The notes under the pieces: model-generated
The model's input: the letters and a program-made list of their open reading frames with translations, nothing else
The model's database searches: none
What the model was told of the DNA's origin: nothing
IMG/VR virus record: IMGVR_UViG_3300016476_000212
Location: 1-16,733 of that record
Source: a virus
Direction: 5' to 3' (one strand)
Length of the DNA stretch: 16,733 bases
Position numbers and translations under genes: made by a program
In this document: positions 301 to 16,733 of the stretch, piece by piece
Numbering within the stretch: position 1 is the stretch's first letter
Layout of the letters: each line of letters starts with the position of its first letter

Positions 301-1704
301 ATGGCCAAAACCAAGGGCAAGACAACCCCGAGGCTTGAGACACCTAAGCGCAAAGGAAAATCCAAGGGCAAAGAGTTTGCCGAATGGGTAGCAAAATACA
401 GCGATCCGCTATTGCCGTGGCAAAAGTACGTCTCCGAGCGCATGATGGTCGTCAATAACAAAGGCGAGTACGTCCAGACCACGCAAGGGCTATTGATTGC
501 TCGCCAGCAGGGTAAGACCCACCTAGCCCGTATGCGTATCCTCTATGAGCTATTCGCTGAGCCACGTAAGAGCAGGGTTATCGGTCTATCCTCTAACCGC
601 AATATGGCCATTGATACCTTTCGGCAGGTGGTATCGGTTATTGAAGCCAACGACGAGCTTATGGCCATGGTCAAACAGATTCGCTATGCGAACGGCCAAG
701 AATCAGTAACCCTACTTGATGGCTCGATGTACGAGATTGCAGCAGCTACCCGAGATGGTGTCCGTGGTAAGACTGCCCATCTGGTATTCGTAGATGAGCT
801 TCGTGAGATCACCCGAGAAGCATGGGCAGCAATTAGACCGACGACCACAGCCACCAACGGAGTTTTGCTTACAGCCTCGAATGCTGGAGACGCATTCAGC
901 GAAGTCCTCAACACTCTACGCGAGACCGCATTGAGTTATCCGCCTAAGAGCCTCGGATGGTGGGAGTATTCGGCTGAGCCATTCTGCAAGCTCGACGACG
1001 TGAATCAGATATTGCAAGCAAACCCGGCCATTGGTTATACCACCAAGCTCGAGACGATTCAGGAATACATCAAAACCGCTAAGGCTGAGGATGCCAGGAC
1101 TGAGCATCTATGCCTCTGGGTGGACGCTATTGCTTCGCCGTGGCCTTATATGGCCTTTGAGAACCTTACTGTGCAAGACCTACAGCTCAACCCCGGGGCG
1201 CATACAGTCTTTGGCATAGATACATCCGTTACCAAGAAGAAAGCCTCGCTCGTAGCTGCTCAGATCATGCCCGACGGCAAGATAGGCGTGGGCATCATGC
1301 AACAATGGGAAAGCGACGTAGCCATAGACGAGTTGAAGGTGGCTGCCGAAATTAAGGCTTGGTGGGATAAGTATCGCCCTCGTATGCTATGTTACGACAA
1401 GTACGCGACCGCCAGCATCGCCTCTCGGCTCGAGCAATCTGGTTGTAAGGTCGTGGACATGTCGGGGCAGGTCTTCTATACAGCGTGTAGCGACCTTCTC
1501 GACGCGATAGTAAACAATCGAATAGTGCACTCTGGCCAGAGTGAGTTGGTCTCGTCAATGAATAATTGCGGAGCAAAGATCAACGATGCAGGCTGGCGAA
1601 TAGTTCGCCGACGATCCGCGGGGGATGTATCTGCTGCGATAGCTCTGGCCATGGTGGTACACCAACTTTTGAAGCCGGTCTCAAAACCTGCTATATTTGC
1701 GTAG
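301..1704 (+). CDS. terL: Terminase large subunit
   Basis: 467 aa. Walker A-like ARQQGKTHL and Walker B-like HLVFVDELRE are present. The C-terminal half has nuclease-like acidic motifs (VFGIDTS, LCYDKYA). The gene sits immediately upstream of the portal. The N-terminus is a Lys/Arg-rich tail (MAKTKGKTTPRLETPKRKGKSKGKE). Confidence 0.85.
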   Translation: MAKTKGKTTPRLETPKRKGKSKGKEFAEWVAKYSDPLLPWQKYVSERMMVVNNKGEYVQTTQGLLIARQQGKTHLARMRILYELFAEPRKSRVIGLSSNRNMAIDTFRQVVSVIEANDELMAMVKQIRYANGQESVTLLDGSMYEIAAATRDGVRGKTAHLVFVDELREITREAWAAIRPTTTATNGVLLTASNAGDAFSEVLNTLRETALSYPPKSLGWWEYSAEPFCKLDDVNQILQANPAIGYTTKLETIQEYIKTAKAEDARTEHLCLWVDAIASPWPYMAFENLTVQDLQLNPGAHTVFGIDTSVTKKKASLVAAQIMPDGKIGVGIMQQWESDVAIDELKVAAEIKAWWDKYRPRMLCYDKYATASIASRLEQSGCKVVDMSGQVFYTACSDLLDAIVNNRIVHSGQSELVSSMNNCGAKINDAGWRIVRRRSAGDVSAAIALAMVVHQLLKPVSKPAIFA

Positions 1705-1735: not shown

Positions 1736-2869
1736 ATGGCATTCTGGGATCGCTTCCTCATTCAAGCACCTAAGGTAACTACAGAGGTTAAGGCTCAGTA
1801 TGCCCCTGCAGTCATGGGCGATGATTTTGGGTACTTTAACACCCAACTCATCACGAAAGTCTCCCGAGACGTTGCAATGTCTTTGCCAGCCGTCGTTAGA
1901 TCACGAAATCTTATCGCTGGCACGATCGCAAGCATTCCGCTGCATCTCTATCGTAAGTCCACCGAGGAGCGCATAGGTTCGCCTAAATGGGTTGAGCAAC
2001 CTTCACTCCACCAACCTCGCTCCGTCACGATGGCTTACACAGTAGATTCGCTGCTGTTTTATGGCGTAGCTTATTGGCAAGTTACTGAACTTTATGCAGA
2101 TGATGGCCGTCCAGCTCGATTCAACTGGATCGCGCCGACTCGCGTCACTCAACAAGTTTCACCGGACTCACAGTTCGTTACTCAGTATTACGTTGATGGA
2201 AGTCCAGTCCCCATGCAGGGTCTTGGATCACTTATTACTTTTCAGGGATTGAGCGAAGGTATTCTTAATACCGGAGCAACAATCATCCGCCAAGCATACG
2301 AATTACAAAACGCAGCACATCGCGCAGCAGTAGCACCAATCCCATCTGGCGTTATTAAAAACACCGGAGCAGACCTTAGCGAAACCGAAGTCTCTGCACT
2401 TCTTTCACAATGGAAGGCAGCGCGTCAAAAGGGATCAACTGCATATCTGACTTCAACTCTCGAGTATTCTCCGACGGCATTCTCACCCAAAGATATGGGT
2501 TATGCCGATCTCATCACTCAAGTAACAACGCAAATTGCTCGCCTGTGCAATATCCCAGCTTATTACCTTTCCGCCGATGAAAATAACAGCATGACCTATG
2601 CCAACGTGCAAGACGAAAGGAAACAGCTCATCTCGCTTGCTCTCCAGCCCTATATAACCGCTGTCGAGTCTCGCCTTAGCATGGACGATATTACAAACAG
2701 CCAAAACTATGTCCGTTTTTCGGTAGATGATACTTTCCTTCGTGCGGATACCCTCACGCGCCTTGCCGCGATTGAGAAGATGATTAACCTTGGCTTGATT
2801 ACAGTCGAGCAAGCTCAAGAAATGGAAGACCTTAGCCCGAACGGAATGAATAATGAAACTGACGTTTAA
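1736..2869 (+). CDS. Portal protein (HK97-type portal family by size and position)
   Basis: 377 aa, located between the terminase and the protease/capsid gene. The N-terminus (MAFWDRF...) and overall composition are typical of small portal proteins. Its 3' end overlaps the next gene by 17 nt. Confidence 0.75.
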   Translation: MAFWDRFLIQAPKVTTEVKAQYAPAVMGDDFGYFNTQLITKVSRDVAMSLPAVVRSRNLIAGTIASIPLHLYRKSTEERIGSPKWVEQPSLHQPRSVTMAYTVDSLLFYGVAYWQVTELYADDGRPARFNWIAPTRVTQQVSPDSQFVTQYYVDGSPVPMQGLGSLITFQGLSEGILNTGATIIRQAYELQNAAHRAAVAPIPSGVIKNTGADLSETEVSALLSQWKAARQKGSTAYLTSTLEYSPTAFSPKDMGYADLITQVTTQIARLCNIPAYYLSADENNSMTYANVQDERKQLISLALQPYITAVESRLSMDDITNSQNYVRFSVDDTFLRADTLTRLAAIEKMINLGLITVEQAQEMEDLSPNGMNNETDV

Positions 2870-4382
2870 CGCTACCGATATTCAGGCAGACGAAGGCCGT
2901 CGCCTTATCTCTGGCAAGATTCTGCCATTCAATAACGAAATTGGATATACCAACGTCGGGCGAGTCAAGTTTCGCGCCGGCTCAGTTCAATGGGACGACG
3001 CTAAGAAAGTCAAGTTTTTACTCGAGCATGATTCTAAGAAGCCACTAGGTCGCGCACAATCCATCATGGCGCAGGATGATGCCCTCTATGCCACATTCAA
3101 GGTATCCGCTACATCACGCGGCAATGATGCGCTTATTGAAGCATCTGAAGACCTTCGTAGTGGTCTATCCGTAGGAGTCGAGGTTATTGACTCCAAGCAA
3201 GTCGGAAACGTGCTTGAGATTATCAGCGCACGACTTGAAGAAGTTTCTCTAGTATCAAACCCGGCATTCAAGTCGGCAGAGGTACTCGAGGTTGCTGCAT
3301 CCGAAGGCGATGCAGTTGAAGAAACCAACAACGAAAGCGAGGCATCTCAAGTGGAAAACACCACCCCTGAGACCGTTGCGCCTGAGGCAGTAGATACTCC
3401 AGCAGTAGAAGCCTCGCGCCCAACAATCACCGCTGCCGTTGCTTACGCAAAGCCACGCATTGAGGTTACTCCGGGTGCATACCTTGAGAACACCATTCGC
3501 GCTTCCATGGGTGACGATTCATCTCGTCAATGGCTTGCAGCAGCTGCAGATACCACCGACAACGCTGGCTTGATTCCAACCCGTCAGCTCTCGGAAGTTA
3601 TCAACCCAATCGCAAACGCAGATCGTCCATTCATTGACGCAATCAGCCGTGGCACTTTGCCAGATGCCGGCATGAGCTTTGAGATTCCAAAGCTAACACA
3701 GGCTCCAACAGTTGCCGAGACAGCTGAAGGTGCTGCACCATCCGACACAGATCAAAACGTTTCTTTCTTGTCCGTATCGGTCAAGAAGTACGCCGGTCAG
3801 CAGACCTTCTCTGTCGAATTGCTCGATCGTTCAAGCCCTGCTTTCTTTGCTGAGCTTGCACGTCAAATGCAGTTCGCATATGCAAAGGCTACAAACGCAG
3901 CAGTTGGTACAGCTGTCGTAGCTGGTGCAACAGATGGCGGAAACCGCACAATGTCTGCCGCTAACCTTCTCGACTTCATTAGCGATGCCGCTGTATCGGT
4001 TTACACCAACACCCTCGGCTTTGCTACAAACGTAGTCGTATCTCCAGAGCAATGGGGTGCGATCATGGGTCTCGTTGATGGATCAAACCGCCCGGTTTAT
4101 GTCCAGACAATCAACCCACAGAATGCATCGGGTAACCTCACCCCTGTCGGTGTTCGCGGAAACGTTCACGGCTTGAACCTTTACGTTTCTCGCTCACTTT
4201 CAGGAACCGGAGACGGCTCAATCATCGTTATCAATCCAGAGTCATACACATGGTATGAGTCAAGCACTTTCCGCCTCGAGAGCAATGTCATCTCGACCGG
4301 ATCAGTAAACGTAGCACTCTACGGCTATGGTGCAATCGCTACCAAGGTCGCAGCAGGTGCGTACAAGTGGATGGTTGCATAA
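2853..4382 (+). CDS. Fusion of a prohead protease (HK97 S78/U35-like, aa 1 to about 145) and a major capsid protein (HK97 fold, aa about 190-509)
   Basis: The N-terminal part has protease-like motifs: FLLEHD (His59), GLSVGV (Ser106) and EVSLVSNPAF. An acidic Glu/Thr/Pro/Ala linker covers aa 146-190. The C-terminal part looks like an HK97-type capsid (AETAEGAAPSD...VSVKKYAGQQTFSVELLDRS...). No separate protease, scaffold or capsid ORF exists elsewhere in the window. Confidence 0.8.
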   Translation: MKLTFNATDIQADEGRRLISGKILPFNNEIGYTNVGRVKFRAGSVQWDDAKKVKFLLEHDSKKPLGRAQSIMAQDDALYATFKVSATSRGNDALIEASEDLRSGLSVGVEVIDSKQVGNVLEIISARLEEVSLVSNPAFKSAEVLEVAASEGDAVEETNNESEASQVENTTPETVAPEAVDTPAVEASRPTITAAVAYAKPRIEVTPGAYLENTIRASMGDDSSRQWLAAAADTTDNAGLIPTRQLSEVINPIANADRPFIDAISRGTLPDAGMSFEIPKLTQAPTVAETAEGAAPSDTDQNVSFLSVSVKKYAGQQTFSVELLDRSSPAFFAELARQMQFAYAKATNAAVGTAVVAGATDGGNRTMSAANLLDFISDAAVSVYTNTLGFATNVVVSPEQWGAIMGLVDGSNRPVYVQTINPQNASGNLTPVGVRGNVHGLNLYVSRSLSGTGDGSIIVINPESYTWYESSTFRLESNVISTGSVNVALYGYGAIATKVAAGAYKWMVA

Positions 4383-5406: not shown

Positions 5407-5514
5407 ATGGATAAGCGCACTAGATTTCTGGTCAAGATAGGCCAGATCGAGAAACCAAAACCAGCACCAAAACCAAAGAAGAAAGAAGAACCTAATGGCG
5501 ATCACGCTGAATAA
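5407..5514 (+). CDS. Small basic Pro/Lys-rich ORF (35 aa), hypothetical
   Basis: ATG at 5407 is preceded by GGAG (5397-5400) at 6-nt spacing. Translation: MDKRTRFLVKIGQIEKPKPAPKPKKKEEPNGDHAE. It overlaps the next gene by 20 nt and is below the ORF-track size cut-off. Confidence 0.3.
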   Translation: MDKRTRFLVKIGQIEKPKPAPKPKKKEEPNGDHAE

Positions 5515-5914
5515 CAAGGTAGGGGTCAAGATCGGTACTGTTGATTTCAGCGATCTCGTCACCGCCGCAACTCTCAACATGGCATTCGAGGAGCTTGAAG
5601 TTACTGCAATGGGCGACACCGCTCGGCAGTACGTCAAGGGTCTTGAGACTGCAACCCTTACGCTCTCATTCCTCAACGATCCAGCAAGCACCGAAATCCT
5701 CGACACACTTCTTACCGGCTATGGAACTACTGTCGCCGTCAAGATGATTCAGGATGCTGGCGCGGCTGTTGCAGACGGCAACAAGCTCTACACATTCGAC
5801 ATCTTGGTAAACAACCTCACGCCAATTAACGGCGCAACTGGCGACCTTTCTACTCAAGATGTTACCTTTACTGTAAACTCTGCCGTAACTGTAGCCGATA
5901 CCGGCTCATTCTAA
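5495..5914 (+). CDS. Major tail (tube) protein
   Basis: 139 aa, directly upstream of the chaperone/frameshift pair and the tape measure. The sequence pattern (VTAATLNMAFEELEVTAMGDTARQYVKGLETATLTLSF...) is typical of small siphoviral tail tube proteins. Confidence 0.65.
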   Translation: MAITLNNKVGVKIGTVDFSDLVTAATLNMAFEELEVTAMGDTARQYVKGLETATLTLSFLNDPASTEILDTLLTGYGTTVAVKMIQDAGAAVADGNKLYTFDILVNNLTPINGATGDLSTQDVTFTVNSAVTVADTGSF

Positions 5915-6349: not shown

Positions 6350-6923
6350 AGTTACTCGCGCCATGCGCCAACTTGCTCCAGATATCTTAAAAGAAATGCA
6401 AGCCGAGCTTAGGCCTTTGCTTCGTGAGACCACTAACGCGGCCAAGGCCAAGCTACCCCCTGAGATGGGCTACGAGCTACGCAATTTCAATAACCCCGGC
6501 TATGAGCGTAAATCAGCGACATCTAAGAGCCGAGCGTTTCCGTCCTATAATGTTTCTGAAGTACGCAAAGGTTTAACCTATTCTTTGGCAGCATCCCGGC
6601 CTAATCGCTCTGGCTACGTCTCGCTCGTTCGCATGATGAACAAATCAGCAACCGGAGCAATCATTGAAACAGCAGGACGCAAAGGGCTTTACGGATCAAA
6701 GCGCTCACAGTCCAATAATCCGGACGCTGGAGCGCAATTCATTCGCGCTTTGTCTAATAGCGAGATAGGGCCGCTCAAGCAATACGGAAAGAGCGACAAG
6801 ACAAAGGGGCGTTTACTTTTTGCCGCATGGTACGAACGTCAAAACCGCCTCATGCCAAAGGTGGTTGAGGCTTACGACAAGGCAGCGCGTAGGTTTAAGA
6901 GCAGATTGGACTTGGCAGCATAA
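6321..6923 (+). CDS. Structural protein with an HK97 gp10-like (neck/tail-completion) N-terminus
   Basis: 200 aa. MPVEIKGIVEVTRAMRQLAPDILKEMQAELRPLLRETTNAAKAKLP resembles the gp10-family start, and AIIETAGRKG...PDAGAQFIRAL resembles its core motif. This is recall-based and no search was run. It has a TAATG overlap with the tape measure gene. Confidence 0.4.
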   Translation: MPVEIKGIVEVTRAMRQLAPDILKEMQAELRPLLRETTNAAKAKLPPEMGYELRNFNNPGYERKSATSKSRAFPSYNVSEVRKGLTYSLAASRPNRSGYVSLVRMMNKSATGAIIETAGRKGLYGSKRSQSNNPDAGAQFIRALSNSEIGPLKQYGKSDKTKGRLLFAAWYERQNRLMPKVVEAYDKAARRFKSRLDLAA

Positions 6924-8524
6924 TGGCTATTGATACTTCACTATTTATCAACATCATAAGCCAGTTCAAAACCAAGGGCATCAAGGACGCTCAAAAGGGC
7001 TTTAGCACCCTTGACCGACGCACGGCATCACTTAATAAGAGCTTAGGCATCCTTGCCCGGCGTGTGGCTGTTTTTGAGACTTTGCGACGATCTTTTAACG
7101 CTTTTGTTGAGGACGACGCAGCAGCTCGCAGACTTAATACTACACTTAACAACCTTGGCTTATCTTTCTCGGCTTTAGGTGCTGAGTCCTATATAGCTAA
7201 CCTTGAGCGCACTACAGCCGTTTTAGACGATCAGTTACGCCCGGCCTTTGAGTCACTTGCTCGAGTTACTGGAGACTTTGAACAGACTCAAAGCATTCTT
7301 AACACGGCTTTAGATGTCGCTGCTGGTACTGGTCAGGATGTCGTTACAGTTTCCAAAGCCTTATCTCGGGCGTACGCAGGAAATACGACCTCGCTCTCAC
7401 GTCTAAATGCTGGTCTTACAAAAGCCGAATTAGCAACCGGAAACTTTGCCCTCATTCAAGACCGCCTTAACAGCTTATTCGCTGGCCAAGCAGCAGACCA
7501 GTTAGACACTTACCAAGGAAAAGTAAACCTTTTGCGCCTTGGCTTTAACAATGCGGCAGAGGCACTAGGCAAAGGCATCATTGACGGATTGACCGCACTT
7601 GGCGGCGGAGACGTTCGCAAGTCTGTTGATTTCATCGTAAAGGCAGCAGAAAAGATTGGTGATGCTTTCCGTTTTGTAGGCAAGAACATTGCTTTTCTCA
7701 AGGACATATTTACCACCAAAGACTTTTTCGGAGCCGAGACTCAATTAGAGTTGTTTGAGAAATACCGAAAGGCCGATGATCCTGCTCGAGTTAGGGCATC
7801 CGCTCGAGAGCGTCGCAAGGCACTTGAGGAAGAAAACAAGACGGCGGCCAAGCTAGCCCGGACACGCGCCAAGGACGCAGCAGCCCAAAAGAAGGCAGCA
7901 GCCGATCAAAAGAAAGCCGAGCAAGACAAGCTCAAGCTTCAGACTGCCGGACAACTATTTGATGATGAGCGAATCAGCATTGCAGCTGCTTTGCAGAATG
8001 AATCACTTGATCGCAACGAGATTCTTCGTCTTGAGCTTAAGAAAGCCCTGATTAATGAGAATGCAGACCGAGCAGAGAAGTTAGCCGGACAGCTGCGCGA
8101 TTCTCAACGTGAACTAGCAAGCCTTCAGGCGTTCAAGCTCGCTAACCCATTCCAAGAATGGGAAGACAGCCTTAACCGAGTCCGCGCTGGAGTTGCCAGC
8201 CTTGGGGTGCCGGTTGGTGGCGTTAGCTCGACCGGAACGTCACTTGGTCAGCAACAACCTTTAGCCGGTACTGGGCTAGATCCTTTTGCTGGAACTAATC
8301 TAGCTGGCGTAACAATGGACGACATTAGAGAAGGTTTCGGCGGCGGAGCTTTGGGGGACGTTATTGCCCAAAACGCACCACAGGCCAACGTAAACGTTTA
8401 TGTATCCGGAACCGGCGGCCTAGACGATCAAGCCAAGAAAGATGTAGTGGATGCTGTTATTGAGGCTTCATCGAATGGCTTTGCTACAGGCTGGTTTAGA
8501 ACGACCAACCGGGTGGCTCTGTGA
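6923..8524 (+). CDS. Tape measure protein
   Basis: 533 aa and the longest ORF, downstream of the chaperones. It is helical and Ala/Leu/Lys-rich with a coiled-coil stretch (AKDAAAQKKAAADQKKAEQDKLKLQ) and a Gly-rich C-terminal part. Confidence 0.8.
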   Translation: MAIDTSLFINIISQFKTKGIKDAQKGFSTLDRRTASLNKSLGILARRVAVFETLRRSFNAFVEDDAAARRLNTTLNNLGLSFSALGAESYIANLERTTAVLDDQLRPAFESLARVTGDFEQTQSILNTALDVAAGTGQDVVTVSKALSRAYAGNTTSLSRLNAGLTKAELATGNFALIQDRLNSLFAGQAADQLDTYQGKVNLLRLGFNNAAEALGKGIIDGLTALGGGDVRKSVDFIVKAAEKIGDAFRFVGKNIAFLKDIFTTKDFFGAETQLELFEKYRKADDPARVRASARERRKALEEENKTAAKLARTRAKDAAAQKKAAADQKKAEQDKLKLQTAGQLFDDERISIAAALQNESLDRNEILRLELKKALINENADRAEKLAGQLRDSQRELASLQAFKLANPFQEWEDSLNRVRAGVASLGVPVGGVSSTGTSLGQQQPLAGTGLDPFAGTNLAGVTMDDIREGFGGGALGDVIAQNAPQANVNVYVSGTGGLDDQAKKDVVDAVIEASSNGFATGWFRTTNRVAL

Positions 8525-9756
8525 CCTACCCAATAAGCCTTACAGTCTCGTTTGATTTCTCTAGCGGCCCTAACTTTGACCCACCTTTCCAGATTGGCAT
8601 TAGCCAACTTGGGATTGGTGTTATGGGTGCAGGTGGTACAGCCTCACAGGTAGTGGACTTAACGAGCCAGACCATCAGCATCAACATCAGGCGAGGCCGT
8701 GACCTTTCTCAAGACCGGTTTAACGCTGGCTCTTGCATCGTCCGCGTCGTTGATCCGAATGGCGACTGGAACCCTCAAAACCCATCAAGCCCTTATTTTG
8801 GCCTTCTACAGCCCCTTAGGAAGCTTATCGTTACCGGGACATATAACGGAACCCCCTACCCTCTATTCGCCGGTTATACGCTCTCCTATGCCTATTCTTA
8901 CCCTAAGAATGAGGAGTTCGGTTACGTTGATATTCAATGCACCGATGCCTTCACCTTGTTCAACAAGTCAGCCATTACCACAGTCACAGGCGGAACCGCT
9001 GGCCAGACCACCGGCGCACGCATCAACAAGATTCTCGACATGGTGGGATTCCCCGGCTCTCAGCGTGTTATTGATACCGGAGACGTAACAGTTCAAGCAG
9101 ACCCCGGAACCCTTCGCACAGTCCTTCAAGCCTTGCAGGATGTTGAGTTCACCGAGTATGGCGCAGTTTATGTAGATGCTCGAGGCGATGTCGTATTTCG
9201 TGAGCGCACCGATGCAGTCGAGACCTTAGGGGGTACGGCTACAGTCTTTGACCAGACGGGAAACATCCCCTACAAAGACCTCAAGTTTGCCTTTGACGAC
9301 AAGCTCATCTTCAATGTCGCCAATTTCCAGCGTGAAGGCGGCACAATGCAGACCGCTTTCGACCAAGACTCTATAGACACTTACTTTCCTCATGCCATCA
9401 CCAAAGAAAACCTCTTACATGAGACGGATGCGGACACCCTAGAACTGGCTCAGACCTATGTAGCCAACAGATCGGTGACCGATATCCGCATTGACTCCAT
9501 GACCCTCGACCTCACGACACCTAATTATCAGGCAGGTATTGAGGCGGCTTTGGGTCTAGATTTCTTCGCCCCGGTCGAAATCAGCAACATCCAGCCCGGC
9601 GGATCAACGATTACCAAAACCCTGCAAGTGTTCGGGGTTCAGCATCAAATCACGCCACGCAGCTGGCTTACTACCTTTACCACCGGGGAACCTATCCTCG
9701 AGGGTTTCATTATCGGAAATGCCGCCTATGGTATCCTAGGCGTTAGCAGATTATAG
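8521..9756 (+). CDS. Distal tail protein (Dit-like) / minor tail protein
   Basis: 411 aa. The GTG start overlaps the tape measure stop (GTGA). The N-terminal pattern INIRRGRDLSQDRFNAGSCIVRVVDPNGDWNP...LRKLIVTG...PLFAGY is typical of proteins encoded just after the tape measure. Confidence 0.6.
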   Translation: MTYPISLTVSFDFSSGPNFDPPFQIGISQLGIGVMGAGGTASQVVDLTSQTISINIRRGRDLSQDRFNAGSCIVRVVDPNGDWNPQNPSSPYFGLLQPLRKLIVTGTYNGTPYPLFAGYTLSYAYSYPKNEEFGYVDIQCTDAFTLFNKSAITTVTGGTAGQTTGARINKILDMVGFPGSQRVIDTGDVTVQADPGTLRTVLQALQDVEFTEYGAVYVDARGDVVFRERTDAVETLGGTATVFDQTGNIPYKDLKFAFDDKLIFNVANFQREGGTMQTAFDQDSIDTYFPHAITKENLLHETDADTLELAQTYVANRSVTDIRIDSMTLDLTTPNYQAGIEAALGLDFFAPVEISNIQPGGSTITKTLQVFGVQHQITPRSWLTTFTTGEPILEGFIIGNAAYGILGVSRL

Positions 9757-9765
9757 GAGAAATAC

Positions 9766-10155
9766 ATGGCAACAGGCTTTCCAGCATCTACCGGCGACGT
9801 TCTTACGGCGGCCATGTTCAATGAGCTTGTCGCGTACACCATTAACAGCCAGTCCGGTACGACCTATACCCTAGCCTCAACCGACCAATATCAAGCCCTT
9901 GTCGTTACCTCTAACGCATCTGCTAAGACTGTAAGCATCCCAACAGACGCAACTTATAACTTCCCTGTAGGCACAGCCATCACAATCCTCAATACCGGCA
10001 CAGCCGATACTACAGTCCAAGCCGTAACCTCTGGAACTACTACAGTCACCTCAGCCGGTGCGACTAGCGCACAGCCTAAGATTGGACAATATAAGGCAGC
10101 AGTAGCCATCAAGACCGCCGCTAACGCGTGGACAGTTGTCGGAGCTGTTGTCTAG
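9766..10155 (+). CDS. Small minor tail / fibre-like protein
   Basis: 129 aa with SD AGGAG upstream. The N-terminus GFPASTGDVLTAAMFNEL and the Thr/Ala/Ser-rich beta body ending AANAWTVVGAVV resemble short phage tail-tip proteins. Confidence 0.45.
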   Translation: MATGFPASTGDVLTAAMFNELVAYTINSQSGTTYTLASTDQYQALVVTSNASAKTVSIPTDATYNFPVGTAITILNTGTADTTVQAVTSGTTTVTSAGATSAQPKIGQYKAAVAIKTAANAWTVVGAVV

Positions 10156-10718
10156 TGATCGGAAATCTATCCGCTGCTATCTTTACGCCGGGAGCAACCA
10201 TTGGCGATTTTGAGTCTATTGCGACTGTAACCGCTACCGGTTCAAGCTCAACGATTTTATTTACAGGCATTCCAAACACCTTCCAGCACCTTCAAATGAG
10301 ATTTATTGTGCGAGACAACAACACATCGAGCGATAATGGTGTAAATGTTCGCGTTGGCAACGGCTCCATAGATTCAGGGGCTAATTACTCGTTTCACAGA
10401 TTACGAGGTAATGGAGCATCCGCCAGCGCAGACGGCTACGCTTCACAGACTGCTGGAAACCTTGTTACCGCATCAGCTAGTGCAACAGCAGACTCTTACT
10501 CGGTGGGTGTTATTGATTTCCTAGACTACCGCGATACAAACAAATATAAGACTTTTAGGAATCTTCATGGTTACGATTTTAACGGAAGCGGAAGCGTCTG
10601 GATGATTTCTAGCCTTTGGATGAGCACTAGCGCAATTAACCAAATTGAGTTTTCAATTGGTGGCGGCAAGGTATTTACCAATAAATCAGTTTTTGCCCTC
10701 TACGGAATCAAAGGTTAA
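10155..10718 (+). CDS. Putative receptor-binding/tail fibre protein, paralog 1 of 3
   Basis: The GTG start overlaps the upstream TAG (taGTG). The ORF track's longer start (GTG at 10128) is also possible. It shares with paralogs 2 and 3 the motifs (F/Y)ExIAT, F(T/S)xI(P/S)xx(F/Y)xxL, NYS..LRG(N/D)G, (D/N/S)Yxx(T/S)xxK and the C-terminal LYGIK. Confidence 0.6.
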   Translation: MIGNLSAAIFTPGATIGDFESIATVTATGSSSTILFTGIPNTFQHLQMRFIVRDNNTSSDNGVNVRVGNGSIDSGANYSFHRLRGNGASASADGYASQTAGNLVTASASATADSYSVGVIDFLDYRDTNKYKTFRNLHGYDFNGSGSVWMISSLWMSTSAINQIEFSIGGGKVFTNKSVFALYGIKG

Positions 10719-10721
10719 CCC

Positions 10722-11210
10722 ATGCCAGCTACCTATGAACCGATAGCGACGACGACGCTAACCAGCGCACAAAGCAGTGTGACTTTTTCTGCAATAAGTG
10801 GAAGCTATACGGATATTGTTTTAGTCTGGTCTGGCACTCTAACGACGGGAACTAGTGTCTGGGGTCTGCAATATAATTCAGACACAGCAAGCAACTATTC
10901 ATGGACTTCACTTCGTGGCGACGGATCAAGCGCAACTAGCGCACGCGATAGCGGCTCGACTCGTATCCTTTGCGGATGGATTGGAACTAGCCAGACCATC
11001 GAAATCGTGCAGATTATGAACTACTCAAACACGACGACAAACAAGACCAACATCGCACGCAATAACTCAACCGCCACCTCAACCTATGTAAGCGCGAATG
11101 TCGGGTTATGGCGTAGCACTTCCGCCATCACTTCCATCACAATTAAGACAGATTCCTCTACTTTTACCTCCGGCTCCACCTTCACCCTCTACGGAATCAA
11201 GGCGGCCTAA
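10722..11210 (+). CDS. Putative receptor-binding/tail fibre protein, paralog 2 of 3
   Basis: 162 aa. It starts MPATYEPIATTTLT and ends FTLYGIKAA. It is Ser/Thr/Asn-rich. Confidence 0.6.
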   Translation: MPATYEPIATTTLTSAQSSVTFSAISGSYTDIVLVWSGTLTTGTSVWGLQYNSDTASNYSWTSLRGDGSSATSARDSGSTRILCGWIGTSQTIEIVQIMNYSNTTTNKTNIARNNSTATSTYVSANVGLWRSTSAITSITIKTDSSTFTSGSTFTLYGIKAA

Positions 11211-11211
11211 C

Positions 11212-11724
11212 ATGCCAGTAACCTATAAGAAGATTGCGAGTGTTACAGTAACAGGGTCAACCGCCGCCAATATGGAATTTACGAGCATTCCGTCAACCTA
11301 TGATGATTTGATTTTACACATCTCAGCAAGATCAAACCGTGGAACAGCCGAGGATGGTCTAGGGCTCAGGCTGAATAGCATTACTACCGGATATACCTAC
11401 CGCAATTTGACTTCCAATGGTTCAACAGTTGCGAGCGCAAACACAAACTTTGAGCAAATCTGGGCGAGCCGAATTCCAGCATCAACCGTGACCGCGAACA
11501 CTTTCGGAAGCGTTATGGTTTATTTACCGTCCTACGCTGGTAGCACCGCAAAATCTTATTACACCGATGGCGTTACCGAAAACAACGGAACTGAGGCGTA
11601 TATGGTTTTGGAAGCAATTACAAACACTACCACCGCTGCCATTTCAAGCATCACGCTTACCTCGATCAATGCGAGCCTCGTTCAGTATTCCACCGCAACG
11701 CTTTACGGAATCAAACGATCCTAA
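11212..11724 (+). CDS. Putative receptor-binding/tail fibre protein, paralog 3 of 3
   Basis: The internal ATG at 11212, one nt after the paralog 2 stop, gives MPVTYKKIASVTVT...ATLYGIKRS (170 aa). The ORF-track start at 11098 would add a Pro-rich extension lying entirely inside paralog 2. Confidence 0.6.
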   Translation: MPVTYKKIASVTVTGSTAANMEFTSIPSTYDDLILHISARSNRGTAEDGLGLRLNSITTGYTYRNLTSNGSTVASANTNFEQIWASRIPASTVTANTFGSVMVYLPSYAGSTAKSYYTDGVTENNGTEAYMVLEAITNTTTAAISSITLTSINASLVQYSTATLYGIKRS

Positions 11725-11733
11725 GGAGACAAT

Positions 11734-11949
11734 ATGGAAACCAAGCTCGTAGTTGATTGCTCCACAGGAGTAGTCGAGGAAGTAGCACTTACCGAGGAAG
11801 AATTGGCACAGCGTGAAGCAGACCGCATCGCGTTTGAGGAAGCGGAAGCGGCTCGACTTGCTAAGGAAGCTGAGAAGGCGGCTAAGAAGGCTGAACTCCT
11901 CGCCAAGCTGGGATTGACGGAAGATGACGCGAAGCTTCTCCTCTCCTAA
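11734..11949 (+). CDS. Small acidic coiled-coil protein, hypothetical
   Basis: 71 aa with SD AAGGAG upstream. It contains the EEELAQREADRIAFEEAEAARLAKEAEKAAKKAELLAKLGLTEDDAKLLLS helix. It lies between the fibre genes and the lysin. Confidence 0.5.
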   Translation: METKLVVDCSTGVVEEVALTEEELAQREADRIAFEEAEAARLAKEAEKAAKKAELLAKLGLTEDDAKLLLS

Positions 11950-12364
11950 GCTGTGTAAAGCCGGAATTCAACTCAGAGAGCAATTAGATGACTCGTTTCC
12001 GGAGCGTCGAAGGCCGGATGGATGGGTTGCCGATGCCCGGCACTATCGCGACAATCCTAGCTCTGACCATATCCCGGATGCAGAGGGATGGGTTCGTGCC
12101 TTGGATGTATCAGCTGAGCTGGGATTCGGCGAGCAAATGCATGACTTGGCTAATCAGCTTCGAATACATGCCAAGCGAGGCGATAAGAGGATCGCTTACA
12201 TCATCTTCGACGGTCGAATATGTTCACCATTATTCAAGTGGCGATGGCGAAAGTACCGTGGGGCTAACCCTCATCGAGCCCACATGCACATAAGTTTCAC
12301 CAAAAAGGGCGACCAAGACGGCCGCTTCTTTAACGTACCAATGCTAGGGGGCGACCTTGTCTGA
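11924..12364 (+). CDS. Putative endolysin, LAS/M15-type zinc peptidase-like
   Basis: 146 aa. SSDHIPDAEGWVRALDVS (His...Asp) plus NPHRAHMHISF (HxH) resemble the metal-ligand motifs of the LAS (VanY / L-Ala-D-Glu peptidase) superfamily. A holin candidate follows directly. Confidence 0.55.
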   Translation: MTRSFSSPKLCKAGIQLREQLDDSFPERRRPDGWVADARHYRDNPSSDHIPDAEGWVRALDVSAELGFGEQMHDLANQLRIHAKRGDKRIAYIIFDGRICSPLFKWRWRKYRGANPHRAHMHISFTKKGDQDGRFFNVPMLGGDLV

Positions 12365-14244: not shown

Positions 14245-14503
14245 AAAATTACAAGGGAAGTCGGTTTGGTGCGATGTCTGCAAGCTGGCGTACCCTCAAG
14301 GACATGTTAGACAACAGACCCCGGCCGTGTGGCAGGTTATCTCAGAGACACAAAAACACAAAGGCAGGACGCGAAACTACTGCCAGCCATGCGCTAACAA
14401 TGCTCAAATGTGGCACGATGGCTCTATATGGACATTCCGGCAACAGCTGGATTACGCACTAGGAAAGGAAGCAATAGATGGCATGGAACTTACAGGATTA
14501 TGA
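14234..14503 (+). CDS. Small Cys4 zinc-ribbon protein (89 aa)
   Basis: This is the ATG-initiated 3' part of the 13976-14503 track ORF. It contains WCDVCKLAY...NYCQPCANN (CxxC...CxxC). It overlaps the previous gene by 11 nt and the next by 26 nt. Confidence 0.45.
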   Translation: MPIRKLQGKSVWCDVCKLAYPQGHVRQQTPAVWQVISETQKHKGRTRNYCQPCANNAQMWHDGSIWTFRQQLDYALGKEAIDGMELTGL

Positions 14504-15143
14504 GGATGTGGCCAGCCTTAACCGCTGGTTTCAAGATAACTTCCCGACAGGCAGAATCTTGCCTACTTTTGTCTATCAAAACTACCAAGATCAAGAGGTA
14601 GTTATTGAATGTGCCTTGTTTAGGGATATCAATGACGAGCATCCAGCTGTGGTGAATGTGGCTCGAGGTAAAGCATCGGACTATCCAAAGAACATGCAGC
14701 GATGGTATGTCGAGGACACGGCTACGAGCGCAATCGGTAGGGCTATTTTGCTTATCAAGGGAGCCAATAAGACGGCTACGCAAGACTCGATGAGACAAGT
14801 CGCCGCAACTGATCCAGGGCACAAAGTAGAGCATCCATTCAAGCCCGAGGGAAAGCCAGTACCTAACGAGCCAGAAACAGTAGTTTGGGAAGACTTTGAG
14901 CCTAAGGCATTTAGCGAGCAAGACACCTTTATCGCAGACCTACAGGCACAGCTAGGAGCCACAGTAGAGGGCTTCAAGTGCAAGCATGGAGACATGATTA
15001 AGAAGGAAGGCGTGAGTGCCAAGACATCTAAGCCCTACTTTGGCTATGTCTGCGGAGCAAGGTCTAAGGCTGACCAATGCGAGGGCAAGTGGGCAAAGAT
15101 GGTTGGTGGTAAATGGGTCTTCGAGGGAAAGGCGACTGACTGA
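14478..15143 (+). CDS. DNA-binding protein; possibly a Rad52/Sak-like single-strand annealing core plus a C-terminal topoisomerase-type zinc ribbon
   Basis: 221 aa with a strong SD AGGAAAGGAAG. The N-terminal pattern YEDVASLNRWF...VVIECALF...VARG...VEDTATSAIGRAILLIKG loosely resembles the Rad52-family beta-beta-beta-alpha core (KEAVTDGLKRAL-type helix). The C-terminus FKCKHGDMIKKEGVSAKTSKPYFGYVCGARSKADQCEGKW resembles a Zn-ribbon. The function is tentative. Confidence 0.35.
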   Translation: MAWNLQDYEDVASLNRWFQDNFPTGRILPTFVYQNYQDQEVVIECALFRDINDEHPAVVNVARGKASDYPKNMQRWYVEDTATSAIGRAILLIKGANKTATQDSMRQVAATDPGHKVEHPFKPEGKPVPNEPETVVWEDFEPKAFSEQDTFIADLQAQLGATVEGFKCKHGDMIKKEGVSAKTSKPYFGYVCGARSKADQCEGKWAKMVGGKWVFEGKATD

Positions 15144-15988: not shown

Positions 15989-16414
15989 ATGAGACTTGAC
16001 TCGTTCGGTATGCTAAGTCGCAGCCCCGACACTATAGACGGTCGGGGACAAGCGTCTTCGCATTGGGCCCGACTATTACTATTTTCGGTAATAGTCTTTT
16101 GTCTATTTATGCTAAGTAGCAATATGTCGCATGCTCGACCAGCCAAAGACCCAATGAACTACAAACTATACGCTCATAATCAATTACAAGACTGGGATCA
16201 ATTCCTTTGCCTTGTAAGACTCTATGAGAAGGAAAGCAACTGGAGACCAGAGGCTAAGAATGGGTCTCACTATGGGATACCCCAAGGGCGTAGTAAGTGG
16301 CTGGCTACAGCTACACCCTATGAGCAGATTCGATGGGGTCTTAGGTACATAGAGAACAGACATAAGACACCATGTAAAGCATTACGTCACTTCAAGCGTG
16401 TAGGCTGGCACTAA
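15989..16414 (+). CDS. Signal-anchored/secreted lytic-transglycosylase-like (lysozyme-like) protein
   Basis: The ATG at 15989 has AGAAAGG 8 nt upstream. The product has a hydrophobic WARLLLFSVIVFCLFMLSS followed by SHA. Next comes DQFLCLVRLYEKESNWRPEAKNGSHYGIPQ...QIRWGLRYIENRHKTPCKALRHFKRVGWH. This matches my recollection of the actinobacterial transglycosylase-like domain (ES.W...A.N....YGI.Q...QI.WGL.YI..RY..PC.A......GWY). Confidence 0.6.
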   Translation: MRLDSFGMLSRSPDTIDGRGQASSHWARLLLFSVIVFCLFMLSSNMSHARPAKDPMNYKLYAHNQLQDWDQFLCLVRLYEKESNWRPEAKNGSHYGIPQGRSKWLATATPYEQIRWGLRYIENRHKTPCKALRHFKRVGWH

Positions 16415-16665
16415 TGGCCAAGGAATCAAAGCGCGATGGTAGGTGGAAGAAGCTGAGGTTGCAGATACTTAATCGCGATGCGTGGACTTGTGCTTATTGT
16501 GGGGGTGAGGCTAACGAGGTAGATCACATCATTCCGCTTAAGCGTGGTGGTAGTGATGATCCAGATAACCTTACTGCAGCGTGTAGGACGTGCAATATAC
16601 GTAAGAAAGATGGGACTGTGGGCGTTTTTTTAGCACAATCTTCTACCCCCCCCTGTCTTTCGTGA
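16414..16665 (+). CDS. HNH endonuclease
   Basis: 83 aa with a TAATG overlap to the upstream gene. It carries the classic motif W..LR..IL.RD...C.YCG....EVDHIIPL..GG.D..DNL...C..CN..K. Confidence 0.9.
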   Translation: MAKESKRDGRWKKLRLQILNRDAWTCAYCGGEANEVDHIIPLKRGGSDDPDNLTAACRTCNIRKKDGTVGVFLAQSSTPPCLS

Positions 16666-16733
16666 TCGTCTCTCTCCAAAACAGTCCAAACCGGTGCAAA
16701 ACGGACAGACAAAATCTATAACTCCGTCCTATT
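16483..16733. repeat. Right copy of the 251-bp direct terminal repeat
   Basis: Same string as 1-251. It covers the 3' two-thirds of the HNH gene plus 68 bp downstream. Confidence 0.95.

Follow-up and report, generated by a model that had tools for sequence, protein, structure and literature searches.

The window examined here is the whole 16,733-nucleotide stretch of IMG/VR virus record IMGVR_UViG_3300016476_000212, read on one strand, and its tail module ends with three consecutive plus-strand open reading frames (ORFs) of 187, 162 and 170 amino acids, which we call subunits A, B and C and, together, the triad. An initial annotation, made from the sequence alone, had singled out these three ORFs as diverged paralogs with a possible role in receptor binding, and we followed up that proposal by comparing the triad with its relatives, with protein-family and structure databases, and with the surrounding genes. 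The triad and its two immediate neighbours are as follows.

9766–10155, plus strand: W129, 129 amino acids, a domain nearly always found ending directly before A; proposed docking platform
10155–10718, plus strand: subunit A, 187 amino acids, with an N-terminal arm at residues 1–18; proposed tether subunit
10722–11210, plus strand: subunit B, 162 amino acids
11212–11724, plus strand: subunit C, 170 amino acids
11734–11949, plus strand: W71, a coiled-coil protein of 71 amino acids; proposed assembly factor or small structural partner

The genes for A, B and C are packed back to back, and a scan for promoters and terminators found nothing above chance and no signals between them. A begins with a GTG codon that overlaps the stop codon of W129, and its 187-amino-acid start is backed both by a 94%-identical homologue of 187 amino acids and by conservation of the N-terminal arm in homologues. 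The genes from the terminase through A, B and C form a single plus-strand structural operon, in which the triad lies distally among the tail genes, downstream of the putative tape measure and the tail-tip genes and ahead of the putative lysin gene, and relatives carry the triad at the same distal position. The description of A, B and C as terminal tail genes therefore holds for their place at the distal end of the module but not in the strict sense, as the co-conserved W71 gene follows them.

Formal pairwise alignment (BLASTP, nearly full length) gave 27% identity between A and B (E=7e-12), 29% between A and C (E=2e-10) and 31% between B and C (E=5e-11), a similarity far beyond chance, which confirmed that the three are paralogs. 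The shared motifs that had been listed by eye (YExIAT, NY...G.G.S, Y..T..K, S.AI.SI and LYGIK) proved to be invariant or nearly invariant columns of the alignment. The same pattern of a conserved framework interrupted by variable segments was also found within each of the three classes described below, across 76 orthologues.

Copy number and variation in related metagenomic phages were examined in two independent sets of 80 IMG/VR loci each, the first anchored on A-like and the second on C-like sequences (75 of the second set being new), and in a few other contexts; removal of duplicates left 151 loci. A complete ABC set was present in 113 of these, a complete ABCABC set in 5 and a complete ABCABCABC set in 2; in these 120 complete loci the domain occurs only in 3, 6 or 9 copies, and always in the order A-B-C. 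Another 27 loci were cut by a contig end but were consistent with this order, 3 had one subunit split by a frameshift, and 1 (L045) carried ABC together with one lone, very divergent extra copy. L045 is the sole exception to the rule of multiples of three. Its lone copy (8118–8561; score 39 against the class hidden Markov models) follows a normal A-B-C-W71 arrangement and has its own second W71-like gene (8579–8785). At a further locus, L109, a B fragment is preceded by low-complexity sequence, probably a misassembly.

Position within the set predicted sequence class without exception. At each of the three positions, all 76 subunits had their best BLAST hit outside their own locus in a subunit of the same position, and average-linkage clustering of the 228 domains yielded three clean groups that corresponded to the three positions. 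All classes shared 15 conserved alignment columns, and a further 17, 8 and 8 residues were conserved only in A, B and C, respectively. Subunits of one class from different phages had a median identity of 45–46%; for subunits of different classes the median was 33%, alike within and between phages. The equivalence of position and class, together with the clean clusters, implies that the triplication was ancient and that the three classes are not interchangeable, and A, B and C are ancient orthologous classes in an obligate ordered unit. The A-B-C cassette was found both on siphovirus-like backbones (with SPP1_Dit and Phage_tube_2) and on podovirus-like ones (with SU10_adaptor).

The triad differed sharply from its neighbours in how it diverges. 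Compared with the closest relative, L086, the window showed 80%, 89% and 99% amino-acid identity in W411 (the 411-amino-acid tail protein upstream of W129), W129 and W71, respectively, versus only 51%, 53% and 35% in A, B and C. At the nucleotide level (blastn), the flanks aligned, as did islands at 10695–10762 (94%), 11154–11316 (84%) and 11677–12058 (93.5%), but the cores of the three genes did not; the upstream block of similarity ended at 10308 and resumed at 10695. The exchangeable cores, and the 26-nucleotide direct repeats of which one copy lies at the 3′ end of each gene, are listed below.

10309–10694, plus strand: exchangeable core of A, without nucleotide similarity to L086
10763–11153, plus strand: exchangeable core of B, without nucleotide similarity to L086
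11317–11676, plus strand: exchangeable core of C, without nucleotide similarity to L086
10686–10711, plus strand: junction repeat, copy 1, at the 3′ end of A, encoding ...FALYGIK; putative recombination joint
11175–11200, plus strand: junction repeat, copy 2, at the 3′ end of B
11689–11714, plus strand: junction repeat, copy 3, at the 3′ end of C

When the window was compared with loci L001–L096 (which include a few unrelated context loci), nucleotide similarity peaked at the A/B junction (22–25 loci), the B/C junction (13–29) and the C/W71 junction (23–26), and the cores of the window's A, B and C had no nucleotide match in any of these loci. Identities of A, B and C between triads were only loosely correlated (r = 0.42–0.51), and all 11 non-identical pairs of triads in which any subunit reached at least 70% identity were discordant, with combinations such as A52/B97/C50, A100/B99/C57 and A88/B44/C53. 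One pair of loci, L062 and L056, caught such an exchange within a single gene: their 96.8% nucleotide identity extends to 25 nucleotides into C, is lost through the C core and returns 38 nucleotides before the stop codon. The mosaic breakpoints and discordant identities together indicate that each core is an independently exchangeable cassette and that the conserved junctions are the joints. The triad thus diverges and exchanges much faster than the neighbouring structural genes, as judged from L086 and the mosaic breakpoints, and its evolution is of the kind proposed at the outset for receptor-binding proteins. In four loci a free-standing HNH_3 gene lies exactly between A and B (L071, 6550–6912; L077, 2259–2624; L015, 6559–7101; L064, 6499–6981), and such endonucleases may drive cassette exchange at this conserved junction.

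What the initial annotation called hypervariable loops are therefore variable and exchangeable but not hypervariable by mutation. The window has no template/variable repeat pair of a diversity-generating retroelement (DGR), in which it differs from Mtd-type DGR systems, its only repeat of at least 30 nucleotides being a terminal overlap of 251 nucleotides. No reverse transcriptase match was found among the window ORFs scanned, a set that left out small ORFs, and Mtd_N, which is absent from the window, is confined to the gene upstream of the triad in some relatives.

The genes on either side travel with the triad. A W129-like domain ends within 100 nucleotides upstream of A in 65 of the 83 evaluable loci, either as a small protein or as the C terminus of a larger one (range 115–754 amino acids, some with Mtd_N), and among the 70 loci that could be evaluated for W71, a homologue follows the last C within 200 nucleotides in 62 and at a greater distance in 8. 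W129 matches the C terminus of proteins classed in PHROGs as 'minor tail protein' and 'tail fiber protein' (phrog_8780, 7e-11; phrog_16053, 6e-6), and tblastn located it within proteins annotated as minor tail proteins in 122 Gordonia phages; sequence searches of the PDB returned nothing useful for either W411 or W129. W71 is marked by an N-terminal TK.VVDC.TGE..E.ELT.EE motif and a C-terminal LG(L/I)T..EA.LLL motif, and it matched no Pfam family, no PHROG, no PDB sequence and, by tblastn, no phage sequence.

The termini of the subunits were no less regular. Ahead of strand 1, class A alone has either an fn3 domain or an N-terminal arm (18–25 residues, consensus M.xILGI.ASS...), and B and C begin 3–6 residues before that strand (4 residues in the window's B). 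Some relatives carry a C-terminal Gly_rich_2 domain (PF21722, ~280 amino acids) on B or C, and L096 carries one on both. In L084, which has two sets, the gene order is A1, B1, C1-fn3-A2, B2, C2 and then a W71-like gene. At this C-fn3-A junction the usual LYGIK is changed to LYGV(Y/F/W) and runs straight into fn3, which marks C1-fn3-A2 as a genuine single polypeptide.

We rejected a second group of apparent fusions. The A-B, B-C and A-B-C(+Gly_rich_2) 'fusion' proteins in databases (P0270, P0271, P0121, P0144 and others) are gene-calling artefacts: on the contig of P0270 (L083, 1529–3979), translation with table 11 puts stop codons exactly at both junctions, and most other such junctions read '...LYGIKGA-Q-xM...', most likely in-frame stops that the gene caller read as Gln. 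Among these cases only L001 lacked a stop between A and B. Users of database 'fusion' proteins of this family should be warned accordingly. There is, however, a genuine single-chain family, in which three domains are joined by 4-residue linkers. Its 43 members share 31–50% identity over their full length, occupy the same place in tail modules as the triad, and are predicted to fold as one rigid unit (predicted local distance difference test score (pLDDT) 91.4; predicted template-modelling score (pTM) 0.92).

The family to which A, B and C belong is very large, with 36,956 representatives at 50% identity (E<=1e-3; 29,259 at E<=1e-10), almost all of them labelled 'hypothetical', and more than 7,600 clusters at 90% identity that match it among 8,000 candidates scored. 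The initial annotation could not place the family, and neither could we. Pfam gave no match for A, B or C at E<=1 and no consistent family among 115 members scanned singly (E<=0.1), PF07484 (phage tail collar) being absent from the three subunits and all 115 members. PHROGs gave no match for A, B or C, and 5 of the 115 members matched phrog_35103 (function unknown). A profile search of PDB sequences with the family found nothing at E<=10, blastn of the triad region found no match in cultured phages, and tblastn in the phage collection matched only two unannotated uncultured records; within the phage collection searched, then, no cultured phage carries the triad. Our literature search found no paper on the A/B/C family or on PF21722.

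Structure prediction was more informative about the fold than about its relatives. The AlphaFold2 model of A, built from a 115-sequence alignment, is all-beta with 12 strands (pLDDT 91.9), and the predicted A/B/C fold is a compact single domain, a 12-strand beta-sandwich. The best Foldseek matches to this model in the PDB were the thrombospondin C-terminal domain and the N-terminal carbohydrate-recognition domain of galectin-8 (E 0.015–0.02; template-modelling (TM) scores 0.32–0.38), and the single-chain three-domain model reached per-domain, target-normalised TM scores of 0.40–0.46. For neither model did Foldseek return a convincing solved relative in the PDB; the top 50 matches to the A model included no TNF or C1q entry, and T4 gp37 was not among the matches. 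Among predicted viral structures (BFVD), Foldseek found 97 matches at E<=1e-3, all of them uncharacterised phage proteins, of which some are annotated with lambda Stf repeats, collagen repeats, an fn3 domain or a Gly-rich domain. The family also includes giant one-chain relatives with 4–11 tandem copies of the domain: P0139 (2147 amino acids), P0123 (2087), P0147 (1131) and P0124 (1730).

We consider it very probable that the triad forms one obligate three-subunit complex at the distal end of the tail. Extra sets are always whole, an extra A can be covalently joined to the preceding C, B and C are unanchored, and the packing is tight, all of which argue for one physical complex. Moreover, because every additional A is accompanied by a B and a C of its own, and because C1-fn3-A2 is one chain, the members of a triad should assemble together rather than on three pre-existing sites. 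As to the form of this complex, we lean towards a 1:1:1 heterotrimer of lectin-like beta-sandwich domains that would act as a host-adhesion knob, with a putative 1:1:1 stoichiometry and pseudo-threefold geometry. The heterotrimeric fibre suggested by the initial annotation survives here in its first half: a heterotrimer fits better than separate specificities do, and compact single beta-sandwich domains point to a knob, not to a fibre.

In such a knob, the conserved framework would supply both the fold and the contacts between subunits, so that any A allele would fit any B and C allele, and the single N-terminal arm of A (or the fn3 domain in its place) would tether the knob to the tail protein encoded upstream, at its W129-like domain. 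Exposed on the knob, the variable segments (in A at about residues 54–65, 93–116 and 166–175) and the cores that hold them would bind host surface structures, probably glycans, providing three independently exchangeable specificity slots. The independent shuffling implies that contacts are made by the conserved framework and that the variable cores are turned outward, and receptor binding is predicted because of the tail position, the fibre-type domain partners and the pattern of exchange. W71 might help assembly or cap the complex, and in relatives additional knobs would be chained through C-fn3-A and B or C would bear distal Gly-rich domains. More tentatively, we suggest that this arrangement might represent a very widespread and so far undescribed class of adhesins, defined by a heterotrimeric knob of ancient lectin-like paralogs with three exchangeable slots, built-in recombination joints in which HNH homing endonucleases sometimes reside, combinatorial host range (A allele x B allele x C allele) and C-fn3-A chaining.

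Several observations weigh against the heterotrimeric knob. Three binders with separate functions would likewise be compatible with cores that shuffle independently. Even the nearest solved folds match only weakly, with TM scores below 0.45, which makes 'lectin-like' a lead suggested by the models and not a finding. No period-3 similarity was found in the giant relatives with 4–11 domains, and the domain can also be used as beads on a string, with no need to sit on a threefold axis. The A-B-C fusions, which could have given direct support, are artefacts, and the match of the single-chain domains to the three classes (most commonly called as B-C-A, with a margin of only 5–10 bits) is weak and was not used as evidence.

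Much of the same evidence could be read in terms of a serial fibre, in which A3, B3 and C3 homotrimers are stacked on the W129-like domain and C or its Gly-rich extension is the distal tip. A fixed gene order and copy numbers in multiples of three fit such a stack equally well, C-fn3-A chaining and the C-terminal Gly_rich_2 domain on C resemble a fibre that continues distally, one-chain tandem arrays of 4–11 domains exist, and the collagen and Stf-repeat annotations among BFVD relatives suggest that the domain can form homotrimers. We nonetheless regard the stack as unlikely. B and C lack any N-terminal extension with which to dock, a Gly_rich_2 domain of 280 amino acids at the C terminus of the middle gene, B, is awkward for a linear A-B-C stack, where it would block the stacking of C, and the single-chain three-domain homologues, with their 4-residue linkers, model as compact and rigid (pTM 0.92). 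The sole tether being on A, the tolerance of B for a large C-terminal domain, and this rigid single-chain family are our reasons for preferring a side-by-side heterotrimer over stacked homotrimers. Somewhat less probable still is that the triad is a structural element of the tail tip or baseplate that binds nothing itself, for example a platform for Gly-rich adhesin domains, with its variability reflecting compatibility between parts or immune evasion. The Gly_rich_2 domains on B or C in many relatives could indeed be the real adhesins, and a 16.5-kb genome with very few tail-tip genes might use the triad in a structural role. In the window itself, however, the triad bears no additional domain, and still its cores show as much divergence and exchange as those of other loci. 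A pure scaffold would normally belong to the conserved portion of a tail module, whereas here W411, W129 and W71 are conserved and the triad is not.

The initial annotation had also raised the possibility of three alternative specificities, which in its full form would make A, B and C independent receptor-binding proteins, each with its own oligomer, its own specificity and its own site at the tail tip. The independent exchange of A, B and C cores between phages, and the presence of variable regions in each, speak for such independence, and this part of the suggestion is retained. The rest fits poorly, and we think it very improbable. Apart from the lone copy in L045, no complete locus has a missing class or unequal numbers of the classes, copies come as 3, 6 or 9 in a fixed order, and the classes diverged anciently, are not interchangeable and have their own class-specific conserved residues. 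B and C, moreover, have no anchor domains, and extras come as whole A-B-C sets in which the new A is covalently attached to the previous C, so that the added B and C can dock only on their own triad.

Whatever the geometry, the genetic design is well supported by the sequence comparisons, which point to an ordered triad of ancient paralogs whose three cores are shuffled independently of one another at conserved recombination joints. We infer that the triad is phage host-recognition hardware, a known kind of function in an unusual design. With so large a family lacking a Pfam entry, a functional PHROG and a solved structure, a major fraction of the host-recognition hardware of aquatic phages is effectively unannotated. 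The gene order also offers a rule for annotating host-recognition modules in metagenomic phages, namely a W129-like domain followed by A-B-C in multiples of three and then a 71-amino-acid protein, and the junctions are natural splice points for engineering receptor-binding cassettes. If the heterotrimer is real, heterotrimeric phage adhesins would be known from two unrelated families, this one and that of the 2025 virophage report considered below, and the triad would be the first with a clear genetic design for combinatorial specificity, in which three slots are shuffled at conserved junctions.

The remainder of the window is consistent with a small tailed phage. Positions 1–251 are identical to 16483–16733, as is usual when a complete genome has been assembled as a circle, which points to a tailed phage with a putative genome of 16,482 bp, of which the triad takes up ~9.5%. 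The other structural genes, and the ORF that follows W71, are these.

301–1704, plus strand: terL (large terminase), in the structural operon
1736–2869, plus strand: portal, in the structural operon
2853–4382, plus strand: capsid protein, 509 amino acids, with protease-like matches
5495–5914, plus strand: major tail protein
6923–8524, plus strand: putative tape measure, 533 amino acids, assigned from size and position
8521–9756, plus strand: W411 tail protein, 411 amino acids
11924–12364: ORF of 146 amino acids, putative lysin, after W71

The 509-amino-acid ORF matches a major-head-protein PHROG over its full length and head-maturation-protease PHROGs over residues 50–175, which suggests a fused protease-capsid protein. 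The 146-amino-acid ORF overlaps the end of the W71 gene by 26 nucleotides and lies directly after W71 in about 30 loci. It had no Pfam match, and its only PHROG match was phrog_32486 (function unknown); its SDHIPD and HRAHMH motifs look, by eye, like those of a zinc (LAS-type) peptidase, and it may be an endolysin. In the circularised genome, an HNH endonuclease gene at 16414–16665 (Pfam HNH, 1.7e-14) closely precedes the gene for the large terminase, and HNH genes adjoining terminase are linked to cos-type packaging.

For the host there were weak hints of an actinobacterium: a domain like Mycobacteriophage L5 gp49 in the window (14478–15143), WhiB in the relative L001 (20536–20774), the similarity of W129 to Gordonia phages, and, in L094, a prophage copy of the single-chain form beside genes like Mb0984/Rv0959. 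A search of bacterial genomes matched just five short contigs of metagenome-assembled genomes with mixed or contradictory taxonomy, which are probably mis-binned phage DNA.

The archaeal virus psiM2, a Methanobacterium phage, holds a remote homologue of the family in ORF27 (O80217; L093, 21904–22524), with a BFVD TM-score of 0.72 and shared NGDTGSNY and C-terminal IYGLIK motifs. ORF27 is the last tail-module gene before the lysin (a pseudomurein endoisopeptidase), and its homology implies that the fold spans bacterial and archaeal tailed viruses. Unlike the window, psiM2 has no ordered A-B-C set: ORF27 is its clear homologue, and only ORF26 gives a further, weak match.

A design of three tandem genes is familiar from an unrelated setting. 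The head of C1q is encoded by three tandem paralogous genes whose beta-sandwich domains form a 1:1:1 pseudo-threefold head with chain-specific ligand preferences. The likeness to A, B and C, likewise three tandem beta-sandwich paralogs, is one of analogy only, although some structural relatives of the phage domain also stand behind collagen repeats, as in C1q; C1q has no detectable homology to A, B and C, whose assembly into a heterotrimer is our interpretation.

Three phage or virophage systems offer closer comparisons. In Alteromonas phages, a tail-fibre gene set with a small downstream partner is reported to move as a module between distant families (PMC10579305), much as the cassette of W129 domain, A, B, C and W71 is found on siphovirus-like and podovirus-like backbones; that module belongs to another protein family and pairs a single fibre gene with a chaperone, in contrast to an ordered paralog triad. 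The gp131–135 paralogs of phiKZ, encoded in its tail gene region, co-assemble into a hetero-hexameric host-binding fibre (PMC13250141), but they have propeller-type heads, belong to a jumbo myovirus and are unrelated to A, B and C in fold and architecture. The closest functional precedent is the virophage DSLV2, in which three consecutive paralogous tail proteins of ~200 amino acids co-purify as a 1:1:1 heterotrimer and bind host lipopolysaccharide (PMC12724248, 2025). As in the window, these are three consecutive co-oriented paralogs conserved as a set. The DSLV2 proteins, however, are related to Synechococcus phage proteins and carry PF07484 and a needle fold like the tip of gp37 (PMC12724248), whereas A, B and C are another family, modelled as compact beta-sandwiches and without PF07484 or any other Pfam match, and independent shuffling of cores at conserved junctions is not described for DSLV2 (PMC12724248). 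By analogy, then, the window's triad may work like the DSLV2 system while not being a member of it.

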